Under the pieces are notes generated by a model. That model saw only the letters and a program-made list of their open reading frames with translations, searched no databases and had not been told where the DNA came from. DNA of 47,534 bases from Elsinoe ampelina. Its lineage: Eukaryota. Below, piece by piece: positions 6,114 through 47,534 of this stretch (position 1 is the stretch's first letter; each line of letters begins with the position of its first letter). The stretch lies in assembly GCA_010093995.1 (NCBI GenBank), contig ML992535.1:1-47534 (forward strand). The letters run 5' to 3'. A program made the translations under genes and the position numbers.

Positions 6114-6704
6114 GTTGGGCAACAGAGGGCTGTGTAGCATGTAATACCCATGATAATGACCGATATCATCCTCCTGGAATACGATAACAGTGTAACTACC
6201 CTTTTCAGATCAAACTAAATGCCACAGCCACGCTCGCCGTGACTTAGACTGCTGCGTTCAGCATTGTGATCTCTGATTTTCGTTTCCGGCATGCCTGGTG
6301 GCCCAATTCCACCATTGCAAACATCGATCCTTCTACACGCACACGGTATTTTTATAGACGTATCAACAGTTGAGTCCAGCTATTTTGATCATGTCAAGTC
6401 GAAGTTTGAGGCGACACGACCTTCTTGCCGATATGCTCGAGCATGTGAAGATCACTGAGCGGCTCTGCGGGAAGAACCGCGGCGTGGACGTCAAATCTGG
6501 GGATCGTCCAACCTCACATTCAACATCGCCATATACCCTCGAGTCGCAAAGCCGCGCGTGGTCGTCTATTGCTTTTCTCGTTCTTCAGAGCTGCTTTGAT
6601 CGAAGTCTTGCTCAATTGGCGACCCATACATGGCATAGTCACCTCCTCCAGTTCCCCAGCGCGGCCTTGCGACAATCACCTCCTCTCCTGTCGACGTAGC
6701 AATC

Positions 6705-8076
6705 ATGAATCCCGCCGACCTCACCCTGTCCACTCTGGACTCTACTCCTCCCCTCTCAGCAAAGACCATCCCTGGCTCAGCTCTCCTGCCTGGCAAGAAC
6801 TCGAAACTCCCTCTCTCAGTACCCCGAATAGACACCGAACCCATCTACACCCAACTCAAATCACTAATAGGCGACTCCTGGTCAGATTACAAAAATGCCC
6901 TCTCCTCATTCCTCCTCGGTACTCTCCCCCTCCTCACTCACCACCTCTCCTTCTAACATCCCAGGTAAACTCAACCAATCCGAACTCACCCTCATCCTCA
7001 CCCCAATCCTCTCCCACCCACCCACCACCACCACCCCCTCCCCCCTCCACCTCCACAACACCCTCCTCTCGGCCCTCCACTTCAACGCCCTCTACCGCGA
7101 CCCACCCCCGGAAACTACCGCCCCCTTCGTCCTCGCAACCGACACCCTCTCCACCTCCACCACCGCCCCAAAATCCACCGCGACATCCGACGCCATCTCC
7201 GACCGGCTCAAACGCGAAGTCATGGCCCTCACCGCGCGCGACCGGCGACGCATCAAATCCCTCCCACCCATAACCTCGCAACCCCCGGCCTCGGGCGCCC
7301 GCGACTCGGGCCCCGCCCAAGCCCGCACCTACCGCGAAGCCCTCGACGCGTTGCCCAGCGCGATCACGCACGGCCTGTCCGCCAGCGCCGCAGGAGGTGG
7401 GAAAACCAACACGGACCTGGAGATACGCAGGCGGTTCGCCCTGCCGCTCGCGAGCGAGACGATGGAGTTCCCCTCGCGCGAGAACATCCAGGCGAGAGTC
7501 GAGCCGATCGCGTACGAAGAAGGGCTGAGCGGGGGGGTCACGCCGGCGCAACTTTCGGCGGCCGGGGAGCTGGTCGAGGCCGCGGTGGAGGTGTACGTCA
7601 AGGAGACGGTTGGCATGTTGCTTTCCGCGACGAGGGGGGAGGGGGAGGGGATGGTGCAGAGTCGGGGGTATAGGAAGCGGGTGAGGCGGGAGGAGAGGGC
7701 GGAGGAGAGGGGTGAGGTGCAGAGGGATGTGCTGGGACGGTTGCCTGTTGAGGTGGAGTACGGGGAGAAGAGGGAGGGGTTGGGCAAGGGCGATTTGAGG
7801 TTGGCGTGGCGGTTGGATGGGGGGTGTAGGGAGGATAGGTTTTTGGGGGAGAGGTGGGGGGAGGAGGAGATGGAGGTGGAGGAGGTGGAAGGGGGAATGG
7901 GGAGGTTGGGGTTGGGGAAGGTGAATGGGATAGTGGTCAATGGGGCGAGGAGGAAGAGTAGGGTTGAGGAGAAGGAGGAGCAGGAGGATGGGGATTGGGG
8001 GTGGGCTGGCGGGGGGAGGTCAGAGAGGGGACAGTTGATGGATGTGTTGAGTGGGGCGTTGGCGGTGGGGTCGTGA
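6705..8076 (+). CDS. ADA1: SAGA complex subunit Ada1/Hfi1 (Tad1 family)
   Basis: PRIDTEPIYTQLKSLIGDSWSDYKNALSSFLLG|KLNQSEL, LHLHNTLL, and PLASETMEFPSRENIQARVEPIAYEEGL are typical of fungal Ada1. Intron 6919-6964 (GTACTC...CTAAC...CAG). Confidence 0.85.
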
Positions 8077-9330
8077 TGGGGGGAGTGGTTGTATATGCGA
8101 CGATGTGTCCATGAAGAGCACTTGTGATACCAAGGACGACAGGGAAGAAGGAGGAAGATCCGTGGTACACCCTACGCTTGCCCATCATCTCCTGATGCAG
8201 AAGAAGGAGACAGAGGTTATTCCATGAGGAGAAGCATTGTCCCATGAAGACAAGCATTGTCCATACCAGCGTTCGGCATAACACCCCATAAGACGAGGCA
8301 CCGCAAGGCATTCAGGGACGAGATCAAAATAGGAGCTCAAGCGTGCACACCCTGGGATGGAATGAAACACATCGCCCCAGAACAGTTCCAGATTGACCAT
8401 TCGTGAAACGTGCCACCGATGTAATGTACTCTCCTCCTCGCCGCTCCAGGATGCACCAGCTGGACACCAGCCATCAAGACACCCTCTCTGATCGAGATTT
8501 CAACATTGAAAAAAGCCGCGTGTAATCTGTTGACCAGAGTCAATCGGTAGTAACGTGCAACAACTCTGCCAGGAGTGTGTTCCGACACAAGGGGACTGCG
8601 TCAGTGCCTAGTCCTAGACGCACTCTGCCGCTCGGCCTCATAGCCCATGGAGACTCTGCGCCATATCTGCATACAGTCTGTGTGATACACACAAAGACAA
8701 GCCGGCGATCTCGCAGAAGCAGGACCTACCTCAAGACCAGACCGACCAACTCAACGAAGCTGCCTTTCCCGTCCACGGCGCTGTCACATAGCAGTCCCCT
8801 CCTGCACCCGAGACTTGTACGCAGCCACGGCACCGTGCCCGCGAGAGACGTGATGGGAAAGGGAAGTGTATACTTCGGGAAAAGGGGTATTACTATTCAA
8901 GCCCGCTGCACCCAGCTCACATTCTTCATCCTCGGTCTCGGCGGCAGACCTTACCGGCTGCCTCTACAGACTCCCACGAGCAGCTGCTGTTACGCGCTCA
9001 TACGTCCACAGCTCCCTTGCATCCTACCGCCCTGCTTGTGCGGTTCCCATTCATCGCTGAACAATCTATCCCCTCCCCCTGATGCCGGCCCCCCCAACCC
9101 CAGCCCGCTACCCAGCCGGAACAAAAGAGCAAACCCGTCCCAAAGACCGTAAGCAAGGAAATTCGTGAAGTGAACGTTAGACCCATCTCTTCTCTTCCCC
9201 CGCCCATGCCCAATCCCTATCCAACCTACCCCTCATCTCATCCCTTCTTCCCACGCCAAACCCACCCCCGCCTTCTCCCCCGTCCCACCTTCCCATCCCC
9301 TACCACCACCTACTCCTCCCCCCCCAAATC

Positions 9331-12113
9331 TTACATCCCCTCCCCCTCATCCCCCCCGACAGGCTCAACCCTCATCCTGCCCCCCCTCACGCCCCCCTCG
9401 GGATGCACAACCACACTCCCCCTCACCCTCGCCGCCACATCCCGATTGGTCACGGGCAACTGATACCTCACCACTCCCCTCAAAATAAGCTCAAACGGAT
9501 ACCCCAACACCCTCTCCCACCTCGCGCTGCCCCCTGCCTCTGTCTTATTCCCGGGTTTCGCGAGCCGGAATTCCCCGGTGCTGAAGTGGCGCCTGCGTTT
9601 GAGGGGCGTGCCGTCGAAGTATAACCCCTGGTCGAAGTGGAAGACCCGTCCCAAGAGCATGGTCTGGCTGTCGCCTTCGAGGCTGTCGTCCTCGTCGCCC
9701 GAGTGCCAGTGGCCGTCCGAGTCTTGCCATGGTTGGCCAGAGACGTGCAGGTCATCCTCGGGGATAGGGGCAGGGCGAGGGGCACGACGGCGTTCTGCGC
9801 TGGTGCCTACGCCGACGCCGACGCCGAAGCCGGTGGGGGCAGGGGTGGGTGATGCCTCGTCCCGTGTCGTGGTGGCTACGTACTTGCTTTTGGCGAAGAT
9901 GTTGAGGTCCATTTCCCCGACGCCGATGCCGAGGAGGTTCGGGTTCACCGCGCCCACGACGAGGTCGAGCATGATTTCCTGCTCCGAGGCGAGGACGTTT
10001 TGGATTTTTTCGATTTGGACTTCTTCGAGGCTGCGGTTGGACATGAACAGGACCCCGACTGCGCCGACGATGACGAGCGAGATGATGATCAGGCCGAGGA
10101 AGCAGCCGCCGAAACGGCCTAGGAAACTGTTCTGGCGCAGGTTGTAGATACCGCTGTTACTGGTGTCGTAGCGTGGATCGCCGGCTCTGCGGCGTTGATA
10201 GCGGCGCGGGGTTCGCACGGTGCCGACGAGGGGCGTGCGTTCGTCGCTGCCTTCTTCGCCGGCGTCGTCGTAGTCGTATTGGCGGAGGCCGGCGCCGTCT
10301 TTGCGCCAGGGACCGAAGCGTTGGTTGGCTGCTGGGGCGGATTTGGGTTGAGAAGGCGTGTTGGGTCGTGAGGAGTGGCGTGTGCCGCCGCCGCCACCAC
10401 CGGCGGCTAGGTTGGCGCGGAGTTTACTCGCTTGCGTAAAGGGACTGTCTTCGCCGCCGCCGTAGAGAGAGGAGTTGGAGCCGATGGTGCGGCCGAAGCG
10501 GGAGATGTTGCGGGGATGATGAGCGCGGATGGTACCCATACCTGTAGTATCGTCGGTAGGAGAGTCGAGAGCGGAGTAAGGATTATTAGAGAACTTCATA
10601 GATCGCTTGCCGGCGACTCTGTGATTGTCGTAGCCTGCGCGGAGGTTCAGACGACGATCTGATTGGGAGTGTATCGAGGTGACAGAAGGAGTGCGCGAGT
10701 GGTTCCTATTCGTGCGCAGTTGTGGCTCAGGAGGGTTGGACTCGTAGACAAAGGTCTCATCGCTGTCAGACGAGTTGGCCTCGTCGACCTGTGACGCCAC
10801 TCGTGCCTCGAAGATGTCGGCTTTGGACGAGGCGGTACCATTGTGTACACTAGGCGCTTTGCGGACCGCCTTCTTGCGTTCTTTTCGTGGTCGTATCGTT
10901 TCGTTACTGGGCTTGAGTCGAATACTGCCACCAGGGTCGCCACGCGGACCGGCGGCTCGGTCGGCGCTTAGAGCAGATTGAGGAATGGAGGAGACAGTCT
11001 CGGTCTCCACTGTCATGTTTCGCGTGCCATCGACCTGTTTCGCGCGCGCAGTGGCTGGTGCCGATTTACTCGATACCATCTTGGCCTTGTTTTGGTCGAT
11101 GGTGAGGTCCTTTCTGCCTTTACCATCGCTGCGGTTGCCGTCGCCATCACTCTCACCCGACTTGTTGCCGGTGTCCTTTTTGTGAATGGTGCCGTTCGGA
11201 GTCCGGTCATCGTCAGAGCTCTTAGTCTGTGACGAATTCATGGAGTAGAAGCTGTGATAGTGTTAGTACGTCACAATGAGATATCACCTGGGTTCATATA
11301 CCTTTGATCAGTGCTTTCCCCAAGAACACTCCCTGCAGGCGGGGTTGCTTCTTGTACCGTCTCTAAATTCGACTTGGGTCCGCTGGGTCCTCTGTTGGAC
11401 ACCTTGGGTGTCTGCACTAGTCCTGTATCCCCAAGCCCATCCCCCTTGAGATCTGGCACGGCAGTACCTGGTGGTGTAGAGTTCTGCACAGTGATCGGCG
11501 GCGCACTCAAATTATCCAACTTCCTCGGTACCGAGTTTCTCCTAGAAGACGGCGCAGAAGGACCCGGTGACTTTACTCTGGGTGAGAAACTGGGGCTGAC
11601 GGGGGTTTGCGACTCGGTGGCAGGGGCAGTCCTTGAAGTTCGGGGCAGCCTGCTGACCGCATCTGCGACAGGGTTGCTGTTGGAATGCAGTTGAGGTACA
11701 GCCGCTGCGGAGAGAGCGCGTTGTATGGCAGCCGCAGAAGGTGGAGCGGCGGAGGATTGTGTCGATACTGGCCTGATCGGACTCGCGTCGTGGCTATTCT
11801 TCCTTGACCGTATACCAGCGGCGCGTTGTGCTGTTGAGTGTGGAGTTTCTTGCGGTCGCACCGAGGGGCGTATGGGTGACGTATTTCGAGATGTTTGGGG
11901 ACTCGCGGAGACGGAGGGCGGGAGTGAGGGGACTAGATTGGTAGAAGGCTGTTTTCGCATGGAAGGGATGTGAGTATTTGATCCATCGCGACGTAATGTC
12001 GGGCTGGGATCGCGGTGTGACGGGACTTGTCGTTGGGGTGTTTGTACCGCAGCGGTATCGTGTGTTTTTGGCTGACCAGGGACGGACTGGGAGCCTTCCC
12101 TGCCAGCCTCCAT
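9331..12113 (-). CDS. VAC7: Vacuolar segregation / PI(3,5)P2 regulator Vac7
   Basis: MTVETETVSSIPQ, SSKADIFEARVASQVDEANSSDSDETFVYESNP, a TM helix, and IQNVLASEQEIMLDLVVGAVNPN, TMLLGRVFHFD, PFELILRGVVRYQLP. Intron 11252-11301 (GTATAT...ACTAAC...CAG). Confidence 0.92.
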
Positions 12114-13605
12114 TGTGTATGTATGTTATGTCTTGCTCTTTTCGGTATTGTCGTCTACGAACACATTGGTACGTGTGTGGTCGCGTGTGGCAGCCTAGCT
12201 ACACTCATCATGTCGGGGACTGGACTGGACTGCAGCTCCAATAATGTGTCGCAAGGCTCAGGGTAGCGCAAAGAAAGCCGTCACGACGACGTGTTTCCGG
12301 ACGGGTGAATGGCAGTGGGGTACGGTATTCTCCAAGGCAGAAGCCGTCTGAACTACTGAATGAGACGAAGGATGTTGATTCCTCTATCGGGATCTCTCTG
12401 TCCTGCTGGTGTCATGCAAACGTCGTGGAGCAGTTTTTGAGCCAATCAACGGGGAGCAAACGTAGATGGCTTCTCAGGAACGGGAAGAAGAGACACAAGA
12501 GCAGGAAACTTGGGCCGGGCTGACTGATTGACCCTTGGACCAAAGGAGACCAGACATCGGATCCTTGGGACGCACAAGAAACCGCTTTTCAGGAGATGAT
12601 TAAATTTGTTGCAATAATAAAATGCACATGGTCTGTTCCTGACTATCGCTGCATGCTCCCCACCAAACATGCAGCATCACCGTTTGTTTCTCTCCAAACG
12701 AGGCTGATAATCATACCTCCCGTAGTGATTATGGATTATATTATGATCGAGAAGGAAAAGATCCGAGATTGCCGAGCAACCACGCTTTTTTATTAGCGAG
12801 AGCATTTCGCGCCGAGGAGAGGAGCCGGACAGCGAGTGACAACGATACATCTGCCTCTTTTCGGTCGGGTTGGGGTTCAAGGGTTGGGCATCGTGAAAGC
12901 ACATGCACATTCTCATCAGAATTCGTGTCTCTTCCTCCCATGAGAGAGAGAATCTGCTTCGCCTCCACGTGTTCACCGAGCACGGCCGTGGCACCTCCTT
13001 GGTCGACCTCGGACCGTCGACGTGGGTGAGACAAAACACCGTCACGAGCCACTCTTTTTGCCCGTGGTCGCGTGCTGCTCTTGCTGCAACTTGACCATCA
13101 CGTGTTTGAACAGCATTCAGTCTGCAATCATTTCGTGATGAGTGCTTTCAATTCTCAGCTGCAGCTGTCTGTACGACGAGCTCGCTTGCCTCATCTATCT
13201 ACTGCTATCCATCCCATTCCACTAGTCCAAGCCCATATCCCAACAGCCCGTCCCGTCTGCAAACTCTCCCTTCTCACTACACATCATCAGGCATTCCTGT
13301 GCCTCTTGCCCCTTACACATCTGCTGATCGTCCATCAAAACAAGCACCGTCTCTGCGGCGCATCGCAAAAACACACGTATGCCATTTGCCAAATGCGGGA
13401 ATCATTTTCGTCTTCTCAAAACAAGAATTCAAAGTGGGGAATCGTCATCATTCGCTGGAAATGCTGCAAAAAGCATGTCTTCAATTCAAGGGTCGTAAAA
13501 AGTTTTGATGGTGTCGTACATTCTGGGTTGGTATAGTCATCGTGCTGAAGGCGGCCGTAAAAGTGTGTAAAGTGGGTGTGGGTATTGTCGGTGGTGAGAA
13601 TTCTT

Positions 13606-17042: not shown

Positions 17043-17404
17043 CTTGTATCCCAATCATGCGGCTGCCTGATTCCCTCTATGCGGAGGATGTCTCCGACAG
17101 AGTTGTGCGGAGCTCTTCTTGTGTACACACCATGCACTTGATCACGATCTGTGCCGACAGGTGAAATGACAAACGTTATGATCCGATACTGCCGTCAAGC
17201 GAGGCGGACAGGAAGGGGCGCGATAGGTTGCGACGATGAGGGCTATGTCGTGTCGCAGGCGGAGGGCAGGCGGTGACTATCTCGAGGCGTTGTCTGGACC
17301 GGACGAGATGTTCGATTGTTCGGAATGTAGCGGTGGTTTGGATCGAGTCCGAACGGTAATTTTTTGGTATGATCGAGGTCGACGTTGGAGGAGATGGTAA
17401 ACAA

Positions 17405-27200: not shown

Positions 27201-27320
27201 TGGCACAGCAATTAGCGGGTTTTGCCATGGTATGGAAAGTATGGAAAGAGTATCTGGTAATGAATCGCACACCATCTGGTGATCACAGATAGTACCTGGC
27301 CATATACACCTGACAGCTTC

Positions 27321-28313
27321 TCACGCCCCGAACTGCGCAACCCACGCCTTGTCGAACGTCCCTTTATCCACAGCATACTCCCTCACAAATTCCCTCTCCA
27401 TATCATGCGTCCGACTCCCCACCAACACAAGACTATGCAATGGCCTCCCCATGTCAACCTCACTCAACTCCCCCAACGTCCCCGCCACAATCTCCTGATC
27501 ATCCGCGCCCACCCTCGCGACCCCCACGGCCAATTTCTCTGGCCCACAGATCCCCTCCCCCTTCACCTCCTCCGTCTCCACCAGTTGTTGCGCACACTGC
27601 GCTACAGTCATGAACCGCGGCTTCTCGTACACCACTTTCCCCCGCGCCAACATTGCCAAATCCGGCTCTTTCACCTTGATATCCAGCAGTACCAACGTGT
27701 GCAGGCCTAGTTTCACGTTCTCTGCCACGCGGTCGTAGAAGGACATTGGCCGCCAGTTGTCCGTGAAGAATACCATGCTGACGGTTTGGCCAAAGTTGTA
27801 GAGTGAGAGGCCGGTGCAGCCTACGCCGGTGAGGATGGAGGCGGCGGGGAGGGTGCGCACGGGGATGGGTGGGGTGGATTGCCGGCAGCGGAGGAGGAGG
27901 TCGGTGTGGGTTGTTGCGCTGGGGAGGTAAGAGGGAAGAAGAGGCAGGATGGGGGAAGAGAGGGAGGGAGGGAGAAGGGAGGATGGGGAGGGACCTACGA
28001 GAATGGGTCTCCGACTACGAGGAAGGCGACGTCTACTTTGTCGGCGTCGGCGAGGATTTGGTCACTGGAGGATTCGACCATTTCTCGGTCGGCGATGGTT
28101 ACGGAGCGGCCATAGAAGGACTCCTACTGTGGTGGATTAGATTGGTGCAAGACAGTGGTGTACGGATTGCGGGCATACCAGAGCATCTTTTTCTACCAGC
28201 AGAATTGCTGTGTATGCTTCGAGGTAGACTCGTTCAGCACGTTTGACAATCTCCAGCCCTTTGACCGAGATGTCCTTTTCGTCTGCTAGGCCGAGGCCTA
28301 TGAAGTAGAGCAT
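27321..28313 (-). CDS. DPH5: Diphthine methyl ester synthase
   Basis: [50 protein letters not shown] and [14 protein letters not shown]. Introns 28124-28178 and 27919-27998. Confidence 0.96.
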
Positions 28314-28796
28314 GATTCAACTTGTGATCGGATATGCAAGTTGTGGTCAAGAAAAGTCATTCCATGGCGGGGTGGAGTCGAGGTCGAAAACCGGGAGGTC
28401 CCCTCGAAGCGGGATAGCGTAAGTGAAAGACGGGCGGGAGGAGCCGTAGTGCTGTCAATCACCCGCTCTGATAGCCGCGTTTGGCGACAGCGACATGTGC
28501 TTGACAAGCATGGCCTCGCACAAAGGCTCCGACGAAGCAGCCGGACTCAATTCTCCTTCTTGTGGACGATCTGCCCATCATACAACCACCTTCGTCTTTC
28601 GCTGCTCGCCTGCTGCTGTGCTTGCTCGCTAACACCCCCGATCGCCATTCCAGAACCCATTGATCAAGCAAGCTAATACTCATCAAAGATCATCAGAGCC
28701 TGGTGAATGGCATCTGGACGTAAACACATGTGATAGAGACCCGTCAATTTGTCACCTGGCGATCGCTGCCACATCACTCCGGAACGAACCGCCACA

Positions 28797-30093
28797 ATGG
28801 GTGAACGGCCAGCGAAATATCGCACAGAGATTCAACAGGTACGTGGTCAATTTTACATTTTACATCTTACACATACATGTTGCACATTGGAAAGAAATCG
28901 TTTGGGTCATTATGGCACCTACGTCTCCTCCCGGACCGCATCACGCATTGCGAAATGCCAGATATTACCTCTCCCAAGACTCTTTTTTGCAGGAGCAAGC
29001 AGTGAGTGGAGCTGCGCCCAATGAGACAGTGCCGTACATGGTCCCAAGAACCGATCCTCTTGCTCCTTTCTTTCCCTTCCCTATTACCGAAGAGATCGAA
29101 GTCCCAAAGCCCGCTCACACAAAGCCTCTCCTGGACTACACTGACATCTCCAAGATGATGTTCGTCTCTGGCGAGACCGGCGAACCTACTCCAGAGACCA
29201 CCACCTTGATCGAGGGCATAGTCCAACAGCAAGTCATAGAAATGCTCACCCGCGCCACCGCCCTCGCCGCCCGCCGCGGTGTCCGCGCCATCAACACAGA
29301 CGACCTCATCTTCCTCATCCGCCACGACAAAGCCAAAGTCTCCCGCCTCCGCACCTTCCTCAGCTGGAAAGACGTACGCAAATCCGCCAAAGACTCGGAC
29401 GAAAAAGGCGGCGGCGGCGCAGACGACGAAATGGCCTTTGCGGCAGAAGAGCCCGCACCCGGCGTGGGCCCCAGCGTCGGCACCCGCAATGCAAAAGGCA
29501 ACAAGAAAGCCAAAGTCGGTCTACCCTGGGACGTAGCAAGCTACTACTCCGAACAAGCTCCCGAGCGTGAAGATGAAGAAGACGATGAGGAAGAGGAAAT
29601 GAACGCCGCTACCCTCGCTCGCCTCAAGTCCGCGGACGAACGCACCAAGAACATGACTCCCGAAGAGTACCTCCATTGGTCCGAATGCCGCCAAGCCAGC
29701 TTCACCTTCCGCAAGGGCAAGCGTTTCCGCGAATGGGCGGGCTTCGGCGTCGTGACGGAAGCCAAACCCAACGACGACATCGTGGACATCCTGGGTTTCC
29801 TGACATTCGAGATCGTGCAGACGTTGACGGAAGAAGCTTTGAAAGTCAAGGCAGCAGAGGACATGGTCAAGCGAGAGAGGGGAGGTGATGGGGAGGAGGA
29901 CGATGAGCAGGCGGGGAGGAAGAGGAAGAGGAGAGAGCCTGGACTGTTTGATCCTCCTGAAGAGGCAAGGACGCCGGTCGGCCCGAAGCATATCCAGGAG
30001 GCGTTTAGGAGGTTGCAGAAGCCCGAGCAGAAGATGAAGTATATGAATCATTTGCCGGGGCCGAAGATGAAGAAGCCGGTAAAGTTGATTTGA
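28797..30093 (+). CDS. SPT3: SAGA complex TBP-binding subunit Spt3
   Basis: Exon 1 [14 protein letters not shown] (28797-28838), 316-nt intron 28839-29154, then [38 protein letters not shown] and [20 protein letters not shown]. Confidence 0.95.
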
Positions 30094-30413
30094 GGGGCTG
30101 GATGGATTCTAGACCGATACCTTCATCTACTCCAGGGCGGAACTTGGTGCTGTCGTCGAGGGGACATTGTGTAATTTAGCGCTGGAGTTGGGGCAAAAGC
30201 AAGTGTGGTCTCCTGCCTAGAGGCTCAAGGGGTTGATGAGACGTTCATGGTCTCATCTCAACATCGCACTGCAGCACAGATAGACTATCTCCAAATGGCC
30301 GGTCTCTCAATTTCGCCCCTTTGCATACTCTCCGTCTCTTTCATTCCCGAATACTCCCAACACCTTACCGCGTAACACCTTGCTATCCAGTCCTCAAGCC
30401 CGCCCACTTTTCC

Positions 30414-31724
30414 TCACAATATCACTCCTTCATCCTTGCCCTCCTTCCCTCCCCAAGCTCGGTCCGCCGTCCACATCCTTCCACCAAAGCCTCCTTGTGA
30501 CTTCCTCCCAGCAAGCCTCACCGCACCACCTTGTCGTAGTCTATGTCGGTTCCAGCTTGGATCATAAGGGAAGATCTCAGTATCGATCCAGACTCGATGT
30601 CCGTCTAGCTTCTTGGGACCGGATCCGCGAGTTGTCTCCCAGAGATCGTCCCGGACGGGGATGGGGGATGTTGTTCGTCTGGACCCGGAGGTGTCCTCGT
30701 CATTTGAGTCGTCGATGTTGGGCCGCTGGGTCAGTTGGTTGAGGAAGTAGGTGTCCGGGCAAGCTTGTGCTTCTTTGAGCATCTCGTTGTCGGCGTCTGC
30801 GTAGACGGCGTCGAAGAGAGATCTGTTGCGTGTGACGATGGCTGCTCGGACGACGGATGGTGCGATGGTGCGGGCGAGCTCTTCGTATGTGCAGCTGGAC
30901 GCTAGAGAGGGGGTACCATATACAGTACGGCAGATGGGGATGCTTTGTGGTGTTCTGTACGCGGGAGCTTTAAGAATGAGAAGATGTTTCTGTACAAAGG
31001 GCATGTGTTTCGGCAGTGGGGAGTATAAAAGGGGTGCCACATCCTGTTATCTGTCATACCTTGCACTGTTGCACTCGTCGATTGACATATCCTCGGTAAT
31101 GTTGAAGGTGTTTCTTCGGAAATCACACAGTCGATTATAGGCTAGTCGGGACGGATCAGGCAGACCTTGCTTATGATCCAATAACGAACGGACAGCTGTA
31201 TTGTGATCCACGCCTTGTACTGCCACTGGCATGTCTTTGGAGACGGTGTTATCGTAATCATTCATGATGCTGTAGGGCTCAGCAATGTGGACTTCTGGTA
31301 ATAATCCCAGCTCATTGTAAAGATCCAGATACCCAGCCACAGCACAAGCCCGTCCGACCTGATACTTCATCTCGGGGTAGCGGAAAGCCAGTTGCCGGTA
31401 AGTGTCCTCTGTGGCTATACCAGGATGAAATGTGCAGTATGGAACCTGATCCGGCTGCATAGACTCCGGCAACCTGTTTCTCATGATTGCTCGAGCATTG
31501 ATGGCTCTTGCGAAATGAGGAGCGACGTTGTAAAGCTCCACTGCGAATCCATCTTGGTGGCGAATACCTTTGATGATGCAGAACTTGACAACTTCTTCCT
31601 CGACCTGGTCTGGAACAGCCTGCCGGTGAAGCGCATCTAAGCATGCCTGGCGAGTGATGTCTGGAGACCCAAACATCGTTGATGGTAGTTTTGAACACAA
31701 TCTCATGCAGCATGCAGGGGACAT
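30414..31724 (-). pseudogene. Probable decayed copy of an uncharacterised fungal protein family
   Basis: Two ORFs in the same frame are separated by one TAA (31047-31049) with no intron of plausible size around it. Protein-like blocks include CIIKGIRH, RAINARAIM, YPEMKYQVGRACAVAGYLDLYNEL and LLYSPLP. Confidence 0.55.
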
Positions 31725-31829
31725 TGTGGTTCAGCCCTCCATGCCGATACGGCTGATATGGATTTGGAAGTTCTTAATGAGAACATCAGTCACTGTTGAG
31801 TCACCCACACCCAGACGTCCGATGATGGA

Positions 31830-32275: not shown

Positions 32276-33097
32276 TAGTACTGTATATCGCACAACGTCG
32301 AGCTCAGGTCGGTGCCGATTGGTGCCACGTGCTGTCTGTTTCCTTTGCCGAGGACGATACCGAAATCCGAGATCCGAGATCCAAGATTCCACCTCACGCG
32401 ACGTTTCTGCTCGACGCACTCCAGCTCAATCCTTTGTTCTCAAACCCACCATGCAACAAGTTTGCGGATATTGTCGTCCGCCTTCTCCACGTGTGAAGTG
32501 AGACATTCCTTACAAGTCTGCAGCTGGTTCTCAGCAGATTGTTTGGGAACGGCAATGTCTTCTCCGCGAATGAGACTTTTGCCCTGAGGGGAAACGTCAA
32601 AGGGGTCCTCGAGCGTGCGCGAACCGTACCTTTCGACCTTTCGAACGAGGTGTACCCTCCCGTAATCCTATACTTAGTTCACACCGCCCTTCCTCGAATT
32701 TGTCTTGCACTCAAACGTATGCCCACCGTCTTATCATACCGGTGACAATAATGGCATACATTCGAGCGAAACCCCATGAACTTTGCCAAAAATAGCACCT
32801 GATAGGGCACAAACATCGCTGGCCCCTTCAAGATTGTGGAAGGGGCCTGCCGATATCGCCACAGCATACTCGAATTACAGTCCGCCCTCATTGCGCAGGG
32901 GCATGCCCCTCGGTAAAGGGTGTACCTGTCTTTATCGGCGATACGAACATATCAGTGGACCCTGAGGTATGCCCGTCTATAAGGCTGGAGCTTTCCCGTT
33001 GGTTGTTGGGTCTTCCAATTCCGAACAGTCACTCATCACAAAAAACGCCACATTAACAGCCTCACAATCCTAACCCATCAACAACTCAACAAGCAAC

Positions 33098-33479
33098 ATG
33101 GTCCGCCTCCTCAGCATCGCCCTCAGTCTCGGAGCCGTTCTGGGAATGGCCCAAGCCTGCAGCGGCGGATTCGCCACCTACCAGTGCACCTACAAGACAA
33201 CCAATAAATTGTGGACTAAGGCAAACCAGGGCCACTGCTGCGTACGTACATCAAACCGCTACTGGCAAACTAGAATCTTGACACTCCTTGCAGGCTCTGC
33301 CCGCTGGCTTTGAGATTCCGGCTGATTGCCCCGTAGAGTGCGATGGCCCAGCGGTCTGCGTCCATTCGAACGACCGCCACCAGTACGTGCCGGCCAATCT
33401 TGAAGAAATCAATGGGATTGTATTAACACTGATGTCTAGATGCCACTGCGGGGAGGGCAGATGCCTCAACATTCCCTAG
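33098..33479 (+). CDS. Small secreted cysteine-rich protein (effector-like), ~90 aa, 10 Cys
   Basis: Signal peptide MVRLLSIALSLGAVLGMAQA. Introns 33242-33293 and 33383-33439 (both GTACGT donors). TATAAG at 32978 and a CAACATG start context. Confidence 0.85.
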
Positions 33480-34020
33480 GCGTTTACTGGATAGAGTCGC
33501 AACCGGACCGCTGCTTGGCGTTCCAATGGGGCCGCACATCGAGGTACACATCATCGAGTTCCGTTGGTTATGTTCGAATGGCGTGGGGCCAAAGTTGTCG
33601 GTATCGCGTAGCTGTCACTCAATTGAACACATTCGCTCACCCAGTGCTGGGATAATTTGATCTTGTGGGTATAACTTGTGAAAGTACGACGTAGCATGGC
33701 TGCACGACATGGATGTGACACACTTGAGTGATTCACTATGATCGGTCGAGTGTCGTACAGTGCGTGGACATGTATCAAATGACATTGACGGCCCTTCACT
33801 TGGTGTACTCGCTGTCAAACTTGAATTGTTGATCCATTCAGAGTCAATTAATCGATCGGCGACAAATGGAATTCTGGATAGTGATTCGCACCCGATTTGG
33901 AACGAAACCAGGGTGAAAGGCTACTATACAAGTCTGTTTCACCCTTTCCCGGATCGAGTGCCGTCTGTACTTCTCGTACCACTTCAGCTCTTCCCACCTG
34001 TCCGGAATGCTTCGTGAGTC

Positions 34021-35585: not shown

Positions 35586-36191
35586 CGTGTTCCAAGAGTA
35601 GAGTTATGGAAGGATGTCGGATGTGATATTCTTTGTGAATGGTGGTGATCAAGTTGGGAGAAGGAAGGATCTTTTTATGCCCGCCAGAACTTTACATGTT
35701 GCATTTGCCTTTGACACGTGAAGACACGCTGCCTAATACATCTGTCGATGCGACGCGAATCAGGCAGACGCAGACCAGTTATTCTTCTGCTCGAGCTTGA
35801 AGTCCTATGAAGTATAACAGGGAACACTCACATATACTCATGGTTCGCCCAGGCGAACTCAATATCAAAAACCTACGCGCCTGCTGCCTAGCAGCTGTGT
35901 CTACCCTCCTGGATCAGAGTAGGCGACTTCCACGCGGTTGTTACATATCGATGGCTCATTGGCCTTGGTCGAGAACTCTGAATACTTTCAACGACTGATT
36001 TATAATACAATATAAACTTCTCGAAATTGCGTCCAGCCATCTGCAGAATGAAGCTCGAAGTGCGCTTCACGGGATATCTTATTGCTTCCACCTCGAAACC
36101 GAGATCCGGAACGCCATACCAGGCAATGCCATGTAATTCAATGCCCAAACAGCCCATAGCATCAATTGAGAGACTTCATCGAAACGAAAGT

Positions 36192-36764
36192 CTACCCATA
36201 CCTGCTCCCTCCTCTCCTACTCTTTCTCCTCGGCGCAGTAACAATACTGCTCTCTCCCTCTTCCACCACTTCTACGAAGTTTCCACCAGCATCATTTGCA
36301 GGTATCCGCTCTTCCACCACATAGCTGTTCCGTGCCGGAGGTGCTCTGCTTGTGTCTCTCACTATCCGTTCTTGTCGTATTATCCTCTCCCCTCCTCTCC
36401 TCGGACTGCGGCTCGTCATTTCTGATCTTCTCGTCGACCTCCTCGACCTCGGTGAGCGTGAACTTCTACGAACGACGACTTCTTCTTCCGATATCAGAGG
36501 CGAGCTGCGGCGACTTGTGACAGCGCTGAATAGTAGAACCAGGAGGAGGAAACCAGCTACTGAGCCGAGGACTATGCCGACCACTGCGCCAGGGGCGGGA
36601 GAGTCGTTTTGATTTTGGTAGAGTGTGGGGATTGCAATTGTGCCTTGTCGCTTGAGTAGATCGTGGACTTCGAGCTGTCGCGCCGTTGGACGGATGGGTT
36701 CTGGTAGCGGTTGCGGACCAGCTACCCGCGGGTGGAGCGATTGGAGATGGGCGATTGGAGGCAT
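36192..36764 (-). CDS. Small single-TM protein with Arg/Ser-rich cytoplasmic tail, function unknown
   Basis: 190-aa ORF. PAPGAVVGIVLGSVAGFLLLVLLF TM segment, then EEVVVRRSSRSPRSRR, a pattern seen in conserved ascomycete hypothetical proteins. Confidence 0.75.
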   Translation of the reverse strand: MPPIAHLQSLHPRVAGPQPLPEPIRPTARQLEVHDLLKRQGTIAIPTLYQNQNDSPAPGAVVGIVLGSVAGFLLLVLLFSAVTSRRSSPLISEEEVVVRRSSRSPRSRRSTRRSEMTSRSPRRGGERIIRQERIVRDTSRAPPARNSYVVEERIPANDAGGNFVEVVEEGESSIVTAPRRKSRRGGSRYG

Positions 36765-38033
36765 TGCGCCTGGATGTCTTTAGCCTCGAAGTGCAGCCCA
36801 AGCACCGGGAGAATTGGCGGTCGAAGCGAGTGCTGTCTCGCGCAATTGGTGAGATGTGAAGGATGTCGCGCACAAAGTGAAGTCAGCTCGCCGGCGGCTG
36901 AAGTTGGACTGGGCAGCGTGTGATGCGCAAAGTGGTCTTTCTGTTTTTCTCGTCCTGCAGGCGCTGCTGAATATGTACTTATTGCCGGCAGATAAGTCCT
37001 TGTACACGCACAAACGAATGACGGATAATTTGGAGAGTAAAGGTCAATGGGTGGTGGACGGTAAAATAAAACGACTATCCTAAAGGTGGTGCGGATGCGT
37101 CATGGGCTTCATTTTTGGGACTTGGGAGAGGGAGGCTGGAGACCCAACCTCCTCGGAGTTTTTGACAACGCAGACTCTCAGCTTCGGCAGTTTGCGGACG
37201 GTCAGCACTGCTCAGAAAAGGCTTCCTTTTCTAATCATATACCCTAAAGGCGTCGAGCATATCCTTCGACCTGTCGTTCGTGTAAACATGATTGTGAGGT
37301 GACAGGCACCCTTTTTGACGCCACAACAAACATGTCCATGGTGCACTGGGCCACGAACCATAAATATCAAGGAAGATCGACTTCGAGAAGGCGGCCCGCC
37401 CCTCTGGTTTCAGGATTTTCTTGATTGATCAAACCAGTGGAGTCCCTGATGAAAAACCAGGAAGATGCCGAGAGCGTCAATCATGTGAAGCAGTGGCCAG
37501 TGCTTCAGCTGGTGTTTGACTGCGGCGCATCAACATGTGCGGCTCCAAATGCTTCATGTTTGGCGACATTTGACACATGTACTCCAACCAAGGCTCCGGC
37601 GTCTCTGTGATCGCTTGCTGCACGAATCACTGTGATGTTTCCGACACAGACGGTAGCGAAAGGCCGCGTATGCTCATCTCAGTGGCCGCTGTCGCTCGGT
37701 CGGCTTCGCATTCCGTCCCTCGCCAAGCTTACTGCGCCCCGATTTTGCCCCTCGGTCATCACGAGAACATTCGTTTCAAAGAGACTCAAATTCACATCGT
37801 TCGTGCTTGTCGTACTTTCATATCTCTCACATCTCAGTCTCCTTCACCACTTCGCACTCGACTACGAGGTGTCAGTAAGGGCATCGTCCAACTCTGATCG
37901 TCCCGTCAGCCAAGAGCCAAGGTTCATCGGCGCCACCAGGCAAGAAAGGATCCGAGTCTGACGACTTCTTCTACCCCGACCTCCCTCAACTTTTCAGTTT
38001 CTTACATCTCTGTCGCAAACCTTCAAATTCACC

Positions 38034-40019: not shown

Positions 40020-40358
40020 ATACGTTCCAGTAGCTGCTCCTCCATTGATGAATCATCTGGCTTTGCACGGTCCGTTATGGTGCACTTGAGTGACCACCCG
40101 ACATGGTGCATGCCCCGCGTTTTGTTAAACCCAAGCACGACAGATCTCGCGTTGCGGGGCCTTTTTGCCCCGACGTCACTCCCGGAAGCTCACCGTCACT
40201 CAGGCACCGAGCTCCTTCGAAACACAGACGGTTCAAAAATCATCTTCACGACATTCTCACATCAGAAATTTTCCTCTGCCATCTCTCCGACATTCACGTC
40301 TCTTCTTACATCTTCACATTTCCACCAACTCCCAGACACCCATTCAAACACACCCACC

Positions 40359-42807
40359 ATGCCCTGCCCTCACATCCCCCCCAACCTCCAACCCCCCTCC
40401 CCCTCCACCCCCGTCTACCGCGAAGACTGCACCCTCTGCTTCGACAGCATCGACAGCCCCTCGGGGCTCTCCGTCTGCCTGACCTGCTTCAACGGCGGCT
40501 GCACCTCCACGCGGGCCCACGCCGCCCTGCACGCAAACGCAACCTCACACCCCCTCGCGGTCAACATAAGACGCACCCGCAAGCGGAAAACCCGCGACGA
40601 GCCCCCTCAAAAGATCAGCAGGCTCGCCATCGCGGCCGAGACGGAGGAGGATGTGTACGACACCAAGACGGAGGTGAGGTGTTTCCTTTGCGATCCACGG
40701 GGGGGAGACGCGGTGGAGTTGGGCGAGGAGGAGGAGAGAGTGGAGAAGGTTGTGCAGGGGGTTATGAAGGCGAATACGGCGGCGAGGCAGGAGGAGGTCA
40801 AGGCGTGGGAGCAGGAGATGGTGCCGTGTGAGCATACGCTGTGTTTGGAGCAGGAGCAGGGGAGGAAGATTGAGGGTGGGGATCTGGGGCATTGTAGTGC
40901 TTGTGAGCTGAAGGAGAATCTGTGGTTGTGTTTGACGTGTGGGAATCTGGGGTGTGGGAGGGCGCAGTTTGGTGGGGTGGGAGGGAATAGTCATGGGTTG
41001 GCGCATACGGATACGTCGGGGCATCCCGTTGCGGTGAAACTAGGGAGCTTGACGGCAGATGGAGCCGCGGATATCTACTGCTATAAGTGTAATGAGGAGA
41101 GGACGGATCCGGAGCTGGTTGCGCATCTGGCGAATTGGGGCATCGATTTGGCCGGGAGGACGAAGACGGAGAAGAGTTTGACGGAACAACAGATCGAGCA
41201 GAACCTGAAGTGGGAGTTCAGCATGACGGATCGGGATGGAAGGGAGTTGAAGCCGTTGTTTGGGGAAGGGTTGACGGGGCTGAAGAATTTGGGCAACAGC
41301 TGCTACCTGGCCAGTATTGTGCAGAGCTTGTTCGCGATGAAAGAGTTCCAGGACAGGTATTACAGGCCAGGAGATGAGGTCAAGTGGACCGATCGCCCTG
41401 CCGAAGACCTGGAGATTCAGCTGAGGAAGATGGCGGATGGGCTATTGAGCGGACGATACAGCAAACCAGATTCAGATGTTGTGGCAAGCGAGGACTCTCC
41501 GGAGAAGCCACATCAGAAGGGTCTTGCGCCGGCTATGCTAAAACATCTGGTTGGGCGAGGTCACGAAGAGTTCTCGACAATGCGCCAGCAAGATGCCTTT
41601 GAGTTCCTGCTTCATCTGCTCAAGCTGGTATCTCGATCACAAGCTACGGCAAAGACCGTGTACCAGGACATCACGGATCCTGTAGATGCCTTTCGCTTTG
41701 TCATGGAGCAACGTCTACAATGTTTGTCCTGCAAAAAGGTCCGGTATCGTCAGGACGAGATGGAAAACATTTCGGTGGCAGTCCCTATCAAGCGTCTTCC
41801 GAAGGACACCGACATGACCAACGGCAGCGAAGCCGAGAGCGTAGGGAAGGAAAAGGAAGCATTCGAGCCCGTCACGTTATCACAATGTCTGGCAGACTTC
41901 ACCGCCCCCGAAGTCGTCGAACTCACCTGCCCATCCTGCTCAGCCAAACAATTCACCAAACAATCCCTTTTCCGCACTTTCCCCACCATCCTCGCCGTCA
42001 ACGCCCGCCGCTTCGAGATCGTCAACTGGGTACCCACAAAACAAGACGTCCCCGTCATCGTGGAAGACGCCGCCCTCGACCTCTCTCCGTACCGTTCAAA
42101 AGGACACCAGTCCTCCGAAGAACTCCTTCCTGAAGACGCCGACGTCGGTGGTACCTCCTCCAACGCCTTCGTCCCCAACCCTGAAGCCATCGGCATACTC
42201 GAAGCAATGGGCTTCCCGCGCGTACGATGCGAGAAAGCCCTCCACGCTACAGGCAACTCCGACGCCGAAGCCGCCACCACCTGGCTCTTCTCGCACATGG
42301 AAGACCCAGACATCGACGTCCCTCTAGATTTGGGCGGCGGTGGTGGTGGCGCGGCAAGCAGCGTCGCGGATCCGGAGAAGATCGAGTCGCTGGGCATGAT
42401 GGGTTTCGGGGCTCCGCAGGCGAGACAGGCGCTGAAGGAGACAGGAGGGGATATGGAGCGGGCGGTGGATTGGTTGTTCAGCCATCCTGATGCGCAGGGG
42501 GTGGATGAGAGTGAGGTTCTGGAAGGGGCAGGGGAGGGGAAGAAGGAGGTGCCGCTCGATGAGGGGGAGGCGGGGTTTGCGTTGCAGAGTATTGTGTGTC
42601 ATAAGGGGGGGAGTATTCATGCTGGGTAAGTGGGACCGATATCATGGTAGGGGGCGTGGGCTGACATTGATTAGGCATTATGTGGCGTTCATCAAGAAGG
42701 AACCTGGATGGGTGTTGTTCAATGATGAGAAGGTGGCGTTGGGTGGGGATGTGGAGGAGATGAAGAAGTTTGCTTATGTGTACTTCTTCAGGAGGGAGGG
42801 GAAGTAG
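40359..42807 (+). CDS. UBP14: Ubiquitin C-terminal hydrolase Ubp14 (USP5/isopeptidase T)
   Basis: VYREDCTLCFD, ZnF-UBP (NLWLCLTCGNLGCGR), Cys box GLKNLGNSCYL, two UBA domains, and His box SIHAG|HYVAF across intron 42626-42674. Confidence 0.96.
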
Positions 42808-43373
42808 AAGGTACGGGTGGTGCATGGGGGAGAGGAGTGCTGGAGTTGCATTGCGAGGAGTGGTGCTGTTAGCGATGGCGTTGAGGCCAGATATGGGGCA
42901 AAACTTGTCGGCACTGTTTGTATGGCTGGGGTTGTGGCTAGGTCGCAGCAGGGGATGTTCCTAAGGAGAACGTGGGAGTAGGTCCGCATTCCCAATGACT
43001 GGAATGGTGGGCTTCGTCTGTTATATAGCTTATGCAATGCCGAAGAAGCGGTAGTCTGGAGCGACGAGGCTGCTAAGCTGTAAAAATACTTTCTACAGCC
43101 ATATAAATCATGGTGTCTCAATTCTCGATGAAAGTCCATGGTGATTTCCCGCGTGGCTGGTCTAATCGACGCTATGCCAAAGACTTGTCCCGATTCGGTC
43201 GTGACATGCAGCTAGGGACGCCTCTCCATGTAACCTGATCTCGAATTTCAGCTGACATATCAGTCTCCTCCTTTCACACGATCGATTTGTCGCTCAGCTT
43301 GTACCGCTCCTCGATATCTCGGTACGCATTCGCGCTGCCATACTCGGACTGTGCACGATGCATCTCAGTAACG

Positions 43374-46184: not shown

Positions 46185-46722
46185 AGGATGATAGGACACG
46201 ACCGGTACTGTGGGAGAAACACTTAGGCACCCAGCGAATTCTCGAACAGTGCATATTGAGCTTGATCTCTGTAACATTCACGGTATAGACCCCTGCCTGT
46301 AGACAGGATCAGTTGGAACAAGTACATAAACAATTGGACTATACAGATATTTCGAAGTCTGCGTTCCTTTGTCCCTCGCATCAACCACCCACAGCCAGAT
46401 ACAGATTCGTCGACTACACTTCGCCGTCCTATTCGTTGTACAAGGCAACAGCTTCTCCACATGCCTTGAGTGTGTGACCCGCCCCTTGTATCATGCCAAC
46501 GACGATCACCACACGGCCACAATATCTCAACGAATCATTGGTCGATCAGGAGCAGATTCATACGATTGTCAGTGTACAGTCTATCTGCCCTTCTTGTTAA
46601 TCGGGTGTCTGGACCGTGGTACAGTACGGTATTGATGAATCGAAATAACCTCGCCACTCATCTATACATAAAAAGCAGATCAACCGCCCTCGCCATCCTC
46701 CCCTCTTCCCCCCGAATCTAGA

Positions 46723-47499
46723 TCAACCACTCGCTGCAAAATACAAATTCATCAACGACGGCCCACCACAATACTCATACTTATTCCCAGCACACGGCAT
46801 CAGCTTCTCCAACGGACACGTCACCGCCGCGAAACCCGTCCCCGTCTTCGGCTGAGCACCCGCATAACACTCCCTCCCATACTCAACACTGCGAAAAACG
46901 TCAGCAAACACTCCCTCTCCGATCTCAACAGTCATCGACTTACCCAAAGTACTTGAACCCCTTACTCCTCGCAAACTCCGCACACACATCCACCGTCATA
47001 TCCCCGCCAGTCAACCTCGCCCCATCCAACGCCCTCCCCGTCCCAGCATCCGTATAGCACTGCTTCGAGACAAACCCACCACTGCTCTGCTTCACCTCGA
47101 CAGGGACATACCCGGGGTTCTCCCAGACATTAATCGTGCCCGACCCCCCGCAGACCTGGGAAAACTCCCCGTTGCACCGGTAGTTGCACGCGCTGAACAG
47201 TGGCGAGGTCAAGGTGTCCAGCACTTTGATGCCGGACCCGGAGCCGAGGACGTTGCTGCAGAAACACTGCCCCGCGAACTCGGTGCCGTAGTATTTGTAG
47301 TCTTTGCAGTAGGCGAGGCATTTGTCCACGCTCATTTGTTGCGAGGTGGTGCTGATGCCGCCGAGGACGCGGACGCCGCGGCCTTCGGCGTAGCAGCCCA
47401 GGTAGTTGGGGTTGTAGGGGGCGGGGGGGACGGTGAGTTGGTAGACGGAGTTGGTGATGTCGTTGGTCGGGATGAAGGCGGGGTCGGTGTTGTTGTAGA
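46723..47499 (-). CDS. Multi-WSC-domain (carbohydrate-binding) protein, 3' part only
   Basis: Two WSC repeats (YLGCYAE...MSVDKCLAYC..YKYYGTEFAGQCFC...CGG and CYTD...KYFG|VEYGRECY...CGG). Intron 46889-46943. An upstream intron acceptor at 47500 means the gene runs off the window end. Confidence 0.9.
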
Positions 47500-47534
47500 C
47501 TGGAAGGGGTTAGTGGAAGATGGAAAAGCGGGGG

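Follow-up and report, generated by a model that had tools for sequence, protein, structure and literature searches.

What makes the upstream part of a gene nearly free of G and its downstream part nearly free of C, and what sets the point at which one gives way to the other? The question is raised by a stretch of 47,534 nt (contig ML992535.1, here called the window) of Elsinoe ampelina, the grapevine-anthracnose fungus of the Dothideomycetes, in which several genes show this composition when the sequence is read directly, as in the two halves of ADA1 and twice over in UBP14. Such a pair of arms, C-rich and then G-rich, is called a dyad here, and the change from one arm to the other a flip. The initial annotation of the window had taken each flip for a fixed chromosomal point from which a bidirectional process works outward regardless of gene orientation. 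We find instead that the flips sort by gene structure, and we favour with moderate confidence a reading of the dyads as an extreme and sharp form of the gene-anchored GC skew of fungi, brought about by a transcription-linked, strand-asymmetric substitution bias, of which the molecular steps are proposed below.

The dyads and their strength

GC skew, negative where C exceeds G, was measured in 300-bp windows, and strong flips were called with w=400. Arms exist at the positions given in the initial annotation, with a 300-bp skew of 0.33-0.86 in absolute value. The extremes are found in ADA1 (-0.78 at 6901-7200 and +0.86 at 7801-8100), followed by the 3' end of VAC7 (-0.70 at 9151-9450), DPH5 (-0.58/+0.51), SPT3 (-0.33/+0.37), the region 30.3-31.0 kb (-0.48/+0.34), UBP14 (-0.55/+0.58 and -0.35/+0.61) and a WSC-domain gene (about -0.54). 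The G arm assigned to VAC7 on the plus strand stands in part, being weak over all sites (+0.13 to +0.24) and clear at four-fold degenerate sites. The features are as follows, GC4 being the GC content at four-fold sites, ORF an open reading frame and UTR an untranslated region.

6640-7330, plus strand: ADA1 upstream arm, C-rich and G-poor; skew to -0.78, four-fold C 0.70 and G 0.10; Q, K and E codons 88% A-ending; 46-nt intron 6919-6964 with no internal G (skew -1.00)
7331-7500, plus strand: ADA1 dyad centre, unskewed (-0.17 to +0.19), GC 0.69-0.70; four-fold C 0.47 and G 0.44
7501-8090, plus strand: ADA1 downstream arm, G-rich and C-poor; skew to +0.86, four-fold G 0.74 and C 0.13; two-fold pyrimidine codons 79% T-ending; end about 15 bp past the stop (8074-8076)
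9060-9690, minus strand: VAC7 3' arm, G-rich in gene sense (C-rich on the plus strand); plus-strand skew -0.56 to -0.70; last codons and about 270 nt past the stop (9331-9333); four-fold skew reaching +0.44 in gene sense at 9594
9700-11315, minus strand: upstream arm of the VAC7 3' dyad, C-rich in gene sense; four-fold skew -0.3 to -0.88, GC4 to 0.93
11350-12125, minus strand: weaker VAC7 5' dyad, in gene sense C arm 12125-11700 and G arm 11585-11350; four-fold skew -0.60, -0.42, then +0.56, +0.26, +0.17; GC4 ordinary
27260-27690, minus strand: DPH5 3' arm, G-rich in gene sense; plus-strand skew -0.58, four-fold +0.83 in gene sense; stop 27321-27323
27700-28140, minus strand: DPH5 upstream arm, C-rich in gene sense; plus-strand skew +0.51; 80-nt intron 27919-27998 with one internal G (skew -0.96), confirmed by RNA contigs of four runs
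29240-29790, plus strand: SPT3 upstream arm, C-rich; four-fold skew -0.88, GC4 0.85; beginning about 90 nt inside exon 2 (from 29153 by RNA joints)
29800-30220, plus strand: SPT3 3' arm, G-rich; skew +0.26 to +0.37; two-fold pyrimidine codons 82% T-ending; extending about 130 nt beyond the stop (30091-30093)
30280-31130, minus strand: dyad of the gene with ORF 30417-31046, weaker than the others; plus-strand skew -0.48 then +0.34, flip at 30653; 3' UTR and last codons G-rich and upstream part C-rich in gene sense
36000-37200, minus strand: dyad of the gene with ORF 36195-36779; flip at 36487; four-fold skew -0.33 then +0.67 in gene sense
40200-40620, plus strand: C arm of the UBP14 5' dyad (5' UTR and codons 1-88); skew -0.55, four-fold C 0.75; a cDNA fragment end with adapter sequence at 40233
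40630-41380, plus strand: G arm of the UBP14 5' dyad; four-fold skew +0.62 to +1.00, down to about 0, four-fold G 0.70; abrupt onset, then fading over about 750 bp to a neutral middle (41381-41860)
41860-42325, plus strand: C arm of the UBP14 3' dyad; four-fold skew -0.83 to -0.85; Q, K and E codons 86% A-ending
42326-42990, plus strand: G arm of the UBP14 3' dyad, with 3' UTR and the G-rich intron 42626-42674 (skew +0.48; joint seen in one RNA run); skew +0.43 to +0.61
46680-47534, minus strand: dyad of the WSC-domain gene, cut by the window end; plus-strand skew about -0.54; in gene sense, 3' UTR, intron 46889-46943 (skew +0.48) and last codons G-rich, upstream part C-rich; four-fold skew -0.64 then +0.47, GC4 0.88-0.96

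The dyads are about 0.8-1.5 kb long, with arms of 0.3-0.75 kb. In eight of the nine the G arm adjoins the 3' end of the gene, the flip lying about 200-680 nt before the stop and the G-rich composition running on into the probable 3' UTR. Short genes have one dyad each, while the long genes UBP14 and VAC7 have two, one near each end, with a neutral middle in UBP14 and a weak 5' and a strong 3' dyad in VAC7.

The gene names used in the initial annotation agree with the Pfam domains, which are SAGA-Tad1 (PF12767) for ADA1, Vac7, TP_methylase for DPH5, TFIID-18kDa for SPT3, WSC, AAA/CDC48 for SEC18, FUSC_2 and NB-ARC; the positions of the FUSC gene (19.9-22.9 kb) and of the NB-ARC gene (43.2-46.2 kb) are corrected here. 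The UBP14 protein (40359-42806) is a 100% match to the database protein ubiquitin carboxyl-terminal hydrolase 14 of E. ampelina. UBP14 thus had its own E. ampelina entry, whereas a database search with ADA1 (6705-8076) listed no 100% match, the best being Elsinoe batatas with 95%; the annotated ADA1 model of this contig may be different, or may fall outside the length range searched.

Steps of at least 0.6 between adjacent 300-bp windows occur ten times from C to G and six times from G to C, and never in 30 mononucleotide shuffles. The order had been described as always C then G, which does not hold as a property of the steps themselves: those from G to C are about equally sharp (to -0.94), the two kinds are equally frequent when 300-bp blocks are shuffled (8.6 and 8.8), and only their position relative to genes is non-random. 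Shuffling of synonymous codons, with protein and codon usage kept, gave a codon-matched control which none of 300 shuffles carried up to the observed step, either in UBP14 (0.97 against a maximum of 0.65) or in ADA1 (0.78 against 0.68). SEC18 and FUSC fall within their own shuffle range. About half of the step is retained in the shuffles because the amino acids are skewed too. The flips in UBP14 are very sharp (about 30 bp); that of ADA1 instead spans the GC-rich, unskewed centre. Strong skew (at least 0.5) takes up 5.9% of the stretch studied here, 0.67% of all the fungal metagenome loci used for comparison and 5.5-8.5% of a few other loci; the Elsinoe skew is extreme yet not unique. The gene upstream of UBP14 in an unrelated metagenome fungus (L056:1801-2850) comes close to Elsinoe in the strength of its dyad (-0.56 then +0.62).

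RNA evidence came from unstranded contigs of other samples and studies, with GT..AG joints, from four runs; they do not fix true transcript ends. Joints in them support 12 of 13 introns, the ADA1 intron lying outside this check. RNA-derived contigs match the arms with zero differences, for example over 27001-28332 (across two DPH5 introns), 29153-31527 and 40956-42466, so the skew is not an artefact of assembly. Further observations concern the gene models. The SPT3 intron 28837-29152 (316 nt, GT..AG, supported by spliced contigs of three runs) has almost no skew (-0.24) and is not part of the dyad; the long ORF 28633-30090 runs straight through it, so the ORF-based gene model is wrong there. 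In all four runs one contig departs from the window at 29272 and another joins it at 30314, with the same foreign letters each time, which could come from a paralogue, from another joined form of the sequence or, the stretch being C-rich and of low complexity, from a k-mer path artefact. Over UBP14 the depth is reduced at 40341-41007, with contig starts at 40956-41054, and neither depth nor contig ends can rank parts of the gene. A small gene with two introns (33004-33670; introns 33242-33293 and 33383-33439) has a contig depth far above the rest in three runs. Isolates differ at 17 variable places in 20 kb, too few for a mutation spectrum; four of these lie within 220 bp (42720-42939) in the 3' UTR G arm of UBP14 (C>T, T>C, C>A and T>C relative to the window). 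Long spurious ORFs of up to 361 codons arise from the arms in antisense or off frames (6937-8019, 7332-8171 and 41753-42598 on the minus strand, 40094-40828 on the plus strand), because GC-rich sequence poor in G or in C has few stop codons.

Anchoring to gene structure and the sites affected

All eight C-to-G flips called with w=400 lie inside coding sequences (7385, 9577, 27699, 30653, 36487, 40632, 42325 and 47134), and all five G-to-C flips just outside them, at gene ends or between genes (8167, 27293, 30241, 40094 and 42983). Counted against a mask of ORFs, 15 of 15 C-to-G flips of the window are inside and 4 of 8 G-to-C flips outside. The same was seen in fungal metagenome loci fetched through UBP14 (60 distinct loci, 377 kb, used for flips; 80 for codon mapping), in which 41 of 46 C-to-G flips are inside long ORFs and 39 of 66 G-to-C flips outside (Fisher p=1.7e-7), the share of DNA outside ORFs being 26-28% (26% in the metagenome loci). 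Taken in gene sense, the units are rich in C in their 5' part and rich in G in their 3' part. Because a C-then-G unit remains C-then-G after reverse complementation, the seeming disregard of gene orientation fits a 5' C to 3' G polarity of genes on either strand, and the claim that the units ignore orientation gives way before the sorting of flips in the window and in the 60 other loci.

This polarity is that of a skew already described in fungi. McLean and Tirosh 2011 (PMC3315797) found, in most of 60-odd fungi from a data set with the Dothideomycetes Stagonospora and Pyrenophora, that genes have an excess of C at the 5' end of the sense strand and of G at its 3' end. Most genes have this GC skew, which is seen at four-fold sites, reaches as far as promoters and UTRs and alters the use of amino acids, while AT skew is roughly uniform along genes and does not flip. 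Two untested explanations were offered, mutational regimes that differ along the gene, or an avoidance of C that paces RNA polymerase II (Pol II). The argument that transcription-coupled skew would not flip in mid-gene is contradicted by these data, in which a 5' C-bias turns into a 3' G-bias.

Four-fold skew was profiled in 16 genes of the window. The nine dyads belong to eight of them, and the other eight have an excess of C at four-fold sites and no clear G arm. Neighbouring genes were said to lack the feature, which is right for the G arm and wrong for the C-bias, since the four-fold sites of SEC18, FUSC and a kinase gene are C-biased throughout (-0.1 to -0.9).

These positions bear directly on the model of the initial annotation, which places a replication origin or a break site at each C-to-G flip and lets the process run outward on both sides. 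The model would account for the sharpness of the UBP14 flips, for the similar arm lengths, for the UBP14 5' G arm, which is strongest at the flip and decays from there, and for the GC peak of 0.70 at the ADA1 centre, and C-then-G is also the established polarity of a bacterial origin. Origin skew (weak in yeasts) is however replicon-scale and gene-independent, which some nine dyads in 47 kb with arms below 0.8 kb, tied to gene structure, do not fit, and a fixed chromosomal point does not explain why every flip falls within a coding sequence and every outer border at a gene end. Read as breaks, the flips have the wrong sign: at a resected break, loss of C from the 3'-ended strand leaves sequence C-poor to the left and G-poor to the right, so cytosine damage on the 3' overhang would by its geometry predict the opposite of what is observed, G-poor to the left and C-poor to the right. 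Together with the recurrence in relatives described below, this makes the model very improbable. A strand-asymmetric process that has rewritten conserved genes, acting on silent sites, introns and amino acids, is retained from it and withstood both refutation tests set in the initial annotation; fixed points that disregard genes are not retained.

The polarity comes out right if the breaks lie at the G-to-C borders instead, that is, in the nucleosome-free promoters and terminators at gene flanks, with inward resection in which the 3'-ended strand loses C and gains G and with GC added by biased gene conversion. Such resection would give both arms for genes on either strand, and it is in keeping with the intergenic G-to-C flips, with a four-fold GC in dyads that reaches 0.8-0.96 and with arm lengths of the order of resection tracts. 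Skew should then peak at the flank, whereas the UBP14 5' dyad peaks at its internal flip and fades toward the middle of the gene; the inner arms of UBP14 and VAC7 would require intragenic hotspots in regions neither GC-rich nor skewed; the GC peak of ADA1 is at the gene centre and not at the flanks; and the VAC7 5' dyad has an ordinary GC4. We hold recombination at gene flanks to be hardly likely as the cause.

The sites affected say more about the process. Four-fold sites carry the strongest skew, with C at 0.66-0.75 and G at 0.06-0.16 in C arms, G at 0.63-0.74 and C at 0.12-0.13 in G arms, and about 0.25 of each base in the neutral middle of UBP14; the skew is thus not confined to sites under amino-acid constraint. 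The order in G arms is G far above T, T at or above C, and C about equal to A. At two-fold sites the complementary base is avoided, also where this runs counter to the GC trend: in G arms 67-79% of the two-fold pyrimidine codons end in T and G is far above A among purines, and in C arms 57-88% of Q, K and E codons end in A. G arms favour G- and T-ending codons, which are presumably non-optimal in this group of fungi. Introns follow their arm in five of five cases (-0.96, -0.58 and -1.00 in C arms, +0.48 and +0.48 in G arms), those outside arms (n=8) ranging from -0.57 to +0.29. Past the stop codons the G-rich stretches go on for about 100-270 nt, which is probably UTR, and the ADA1-VAC7 spacer (8.1-9.06 kb) is neutral. 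Synonymous, intronic and intergenic DNA had been described as affected alike; this is borne out for the first two, and intergenic DNA has to be left out. The bias is regional, hitting four-fold, two-fold, intron and probable UTR sites and, under weak constraint, amino acids. Codon optimality and co-translational folding are ruled out as causes by the introns and UTR-like flanks that follow the arms and by the A-ending Q, K and E codons of C arms.

AT skew keeps its sign across the flip in ADA1 and UBP14, but drifts; the pooled G arms have A 0.21 and T 0.19, the pooled C arms T 0.17 and A 0.23 on the plus strand. No context signature (TpC, CpA, CpG) was found around the residual C of G-oriented arms, with dinucleotide odds of 0.86-1.11. 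Blocks with GC4 of at least 0.8 have a mean absolute four-fold skew of 0.61, those below GC4 0.7 one of 0.33-0.38.

That skew covers probably transcribed DNA, namely introns and UTR-like flanks, while the one convergent spacer checked is neutral, is also what selection on the transcript would produce, be it to keep the arms unpaired, to allow a loose fold-back between C arm and G arm, or to control Pol II elongation by C content, the last being the adaptive idea of McLean and Tirosh 2011 (PMC3315797). The conservation of positions among UBP14 orthologues would agree with it, and the ADA1 arms are nearly structure-free when taken alone (-16 and -27 kcal/mol per 300 nt) and fold to -292 together. 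This folding amounts to nothing beyond composition: compared with arm-wise shuffles, the minimum free energy of arm pairs in four dyads has z of +0.55, +0.51, -1.36 and -0.80, and the fold-back RNA put forward earlier as an alternative can be set aside. Avoidance of structure would not combine arms of both kinds in the same RNA, nor would it leave G-arm four-fold sites with so little A (0.05-0.09) beside G (0.63-0.74), and G-quadruplex (G4) motifs are under-represented. The force would have to be strong enough to alter amino acids in five Elsinoaceae and to impose G- and T-ending codons. Selection on the transcript is thus an explanation that we regard as rather unlikely.

Recurrence in relatives

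The dyad of ADA1 was compared in five Elsinoaceae (E. ampelina, E. batatas, E. fawcettii, E. australis and Sphaceloma murrayae) and 12 other fungi through the G-minus-C implied at codon positions 1 and 2. The C arm has -0.17 to -0.23 in the Elsinoaceae and -0.09 to +0.08 in the other fungi, the G arm +0.28 to +0.32 and +0.08 to +0.19, respectively. In the G arm E/(E+D) is 0.69-0.83 in the Elsinoaceae and 0.39-0.68 in the others. The stronger implied dyad across the five species indicates that the dyad predates the family and has shaped the protein, and shows, as far as these sequences reach, that its position has been stable since at least the ancestor of the Elsinoaceae.

For UBP14 the comparison goes further. 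When the 80 metagenome loci are mapped by codon onto the window protein, E. ampelina is the most extreme, and the mean of the others has the same shape at low amplitude. Position was analysed in 56 distinct full-length orthologue loci, and the codon-family-corrected four-fold profile correlates with that of the window at r of at least 0.5 in 14 of them, with a maximum of 0.85; under circular shifts a mean of 0.8 and at most 6 loci reach this value, and the maximum r is 0.62. Over all loci the median r is 0.21, with positive values in 39 of 56. The loci with an uncorrected r of at least 0.5 (n=10, nine of them among the 14) fall into at least five lineages on a tree with named references: near Baudoinia, near Teratosphaeria, near Zymoseptoria, in a clade near Trypethelium and in an outlying clade. 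The Aureobasidium-like loci, the closest relatives of Elsinoe in the set, are without the pattern.

None of the window's neighbour genes stands beside UBP14 in the 22 loci examined for this, and a pattern that recurs without shared neighbours speaks against fixed chromosomal points, whether origins or break hotspots, as does the family-wide dyad of ADA1. The metagenome UBP14 proteins are 64-71% identical to that of the window. At this distance saturation of synonymous sites is to be presumed, which would require continual rebuilding of the pattern at the same codons. Scars of intron loss were considered at the flips (residues about 88 and 655) and are ruled out by the 80 loci, whose introns lie only near residues 10-30, 100, 370 and 710-760. 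Downstream of UBP14, a segment of about 1.3 kb is inverted between two metagenome fungi related to each other (L014:6474-7769 against L027:6460-7847; blastn, opposite strands, 80-87% identity).

Proposed transcription-linked substitution and comparison with known skews

If transcription-linked substitution is the cause, the strand left unpaired during transcription or in R-loops would lose C (to T and G) and gain G. A candidate route is the bypass of abasic sites by Rev1 with C inserted opposite, to which unexcised deamination of C would add C>T. In yeast, Rev1 and Pol zeta put mostly C opposite abasic sites, so that the damaged strand acquires T>G and C>G changes; on the non-transcribed strand T>G becomes more frequent with transcription, and more so again without RNase H (Owiti 2018, PMC6063437). 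This is a tested route for a gain of G on an unpaired non-transcribed strand; it was obtained with reporters in repair-deficient yeast, and nothing in the available parts of that paper ties the result to natural base composition or to Elsinoe.

Sense transcription would thus write the 3' G arm, and antisense transcription, here assumed to enter from the 3' end of the gene, would write the upstream C arm by acting on the other strand. Antisense starts are common at fungal gene 3' ends. In its composition a G arm would then resemble a 'G sink' confined to one strand. Further R-loops may in turn be favoured where the non-template strand is rich in G, a feedback that would account for the runaway amplitude as well as the sharp borders. 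In the centre of ADA1, pressure toward G on both strands would raise GC and leave no skew, in agreement with what is seen there. Anchoring to gene ends would explain how orthologues of equal length share flip positions without sharing neighbours.

A more specific version, which we offer only tentatively and think doubtful, has each Pol II start of these fungi write a fixed dyad on the RNA-like strand, about 0.4-0.7 kb C-rich and then about 0.4-0.75 kb G-rich, with antisense starts at 3' ends writing the mirror dyad. Short genes would receive two dyads in phase, whence the extreme amplitude of ADA1 and DPH5, and long genes one dyad per end, as in UBP14 and VAC7. The machine would be mutational and self-reinforcing, from skew to R-loops, to abasic bypass toward G, to more skew, and, if real, deterministic enough to rebuild the same silent pattern at homologous codons of saturated lineages.

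A number of results weigh against transcription-linked substitution. The antisense transcription is an assumption. T is not enriched at G-arm four-fold sites (0.08-0.16), unlike what simple C-to-T deamination would give. G runs of at least three G (275 against 314 expected from composition) and G4 motifs (33 against 52) are in deficit, which does not favour R-loops seeded by G clusters, and the link of skew with silent-site GC is modest (Spearman 0.20, p=0.016). Many genes of the window (SEC18, FUSC, NLR, kinase) have no G arm, and no tested property separates them from the genes with one. In UBP14, 42 of the 56 orthologue loci stay below r 0.5 and 17 are negative. Amino-acid seeding of the pattern was rejected, the skew imposed by constraint at codon positions 1 and 2 predicting the silent pattern weakly (r=0.26). 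Replacements in UBP14 on the E. ampelina branch show no trend in polarity among 12 assignable changes (counted with an exon-2 coordinate one base off, touching the last 44 or so residues), and the closest patterned pair (L014 and L027, 82% identical, outgroup 72-73%) is too saturated for polarity by parsimony.

Compared with the gene skew of McLean and Tirosh 2011 (PMC3315797), the Elsinoe dyads have the same 5' C and 3' G polarity, presence at four-fold sites, extension toward UTRs and effect on amino acids. That work reports averages over all genes with gradual ramps, whereas in Elsinoe single genes reach a skew of about 0.8, with a silent-site G:C ratio near 6-10:1 and sharp borders; long genes restart the pattern with a second dyad, and many neighbouring genes are without the G arm. 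Conservation of position between lineages, seen here for UBP14, is not examined in the available parts of that paper. An excess of C over G near gene starts is known from plants and fungi (Fujimori 2005, PMC555766) and from Leptosphaeria maculans (Bourras 2012, PMC3411245); the sense strand is likewise C-rich and those authors link it to transcription, but the peaks lie within about 100 bp of the start, and a C arm in Elsinoe takes up 0.3-0.7 kb of coding sequence, with a G arm behind it.

Animal mitochondrial DNA has a comparable four-fold skew that alters amino-acid content too; its asymmetry covers the whole genome and enriches G and T on one strand, while in Elsinoe the skew changes sign locally and four-fold sites show no enrichment of T. 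In the R-loop-type skew of vertebrate CpG-island promoters and terminators the non-template strand is G-rich downstream of the start and carries G clusters. In Elsinoe, by contrast, C prevails over G on the sense strand at gene starts, there are fewer G runs and G4 motifs than in shuffles, and only the 3' arms are R-loop-prone in polarity. The C-to-G polarity at the switch is shared with replication-origin skew, from which the dyads differ in scale and in their tie to genes, as set out above. A literature search, with subscription journals largely outside it, found nothing on such dyads, on restarts, on positional conservation or on skew in Elsinoe.

The feature belongs to a known, unexplained fungal phenomenon and is not a new kind of chromosomal element; what appears to be new is how strong it is, that it takes the form of dyads and restarts within genes, and that its position at silent sites is conserved across lineages. 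The 5' C and 3' G skew of fungal genes was published in 2011 without an accepted cause, and little follow-up was found in the literature. In Elsinoe single genes suffice to show the signal, its sharp borders and restarts and its effect on the protein, so that mechanisms can be tested gene by gene and not on genome averages. A silent-site pattern that recurs in distant orthologues means that neutral-looking sites can bear a position-specific, lineage-independent compositional force, which is relevant to inference from codon usage and dN/dS (non-synonymous to synonymous substitution) and to the phylogenetics of these fungi, and for gene prediction the long spurious antisense ORFs that the arms yield are a trap for gene finders.

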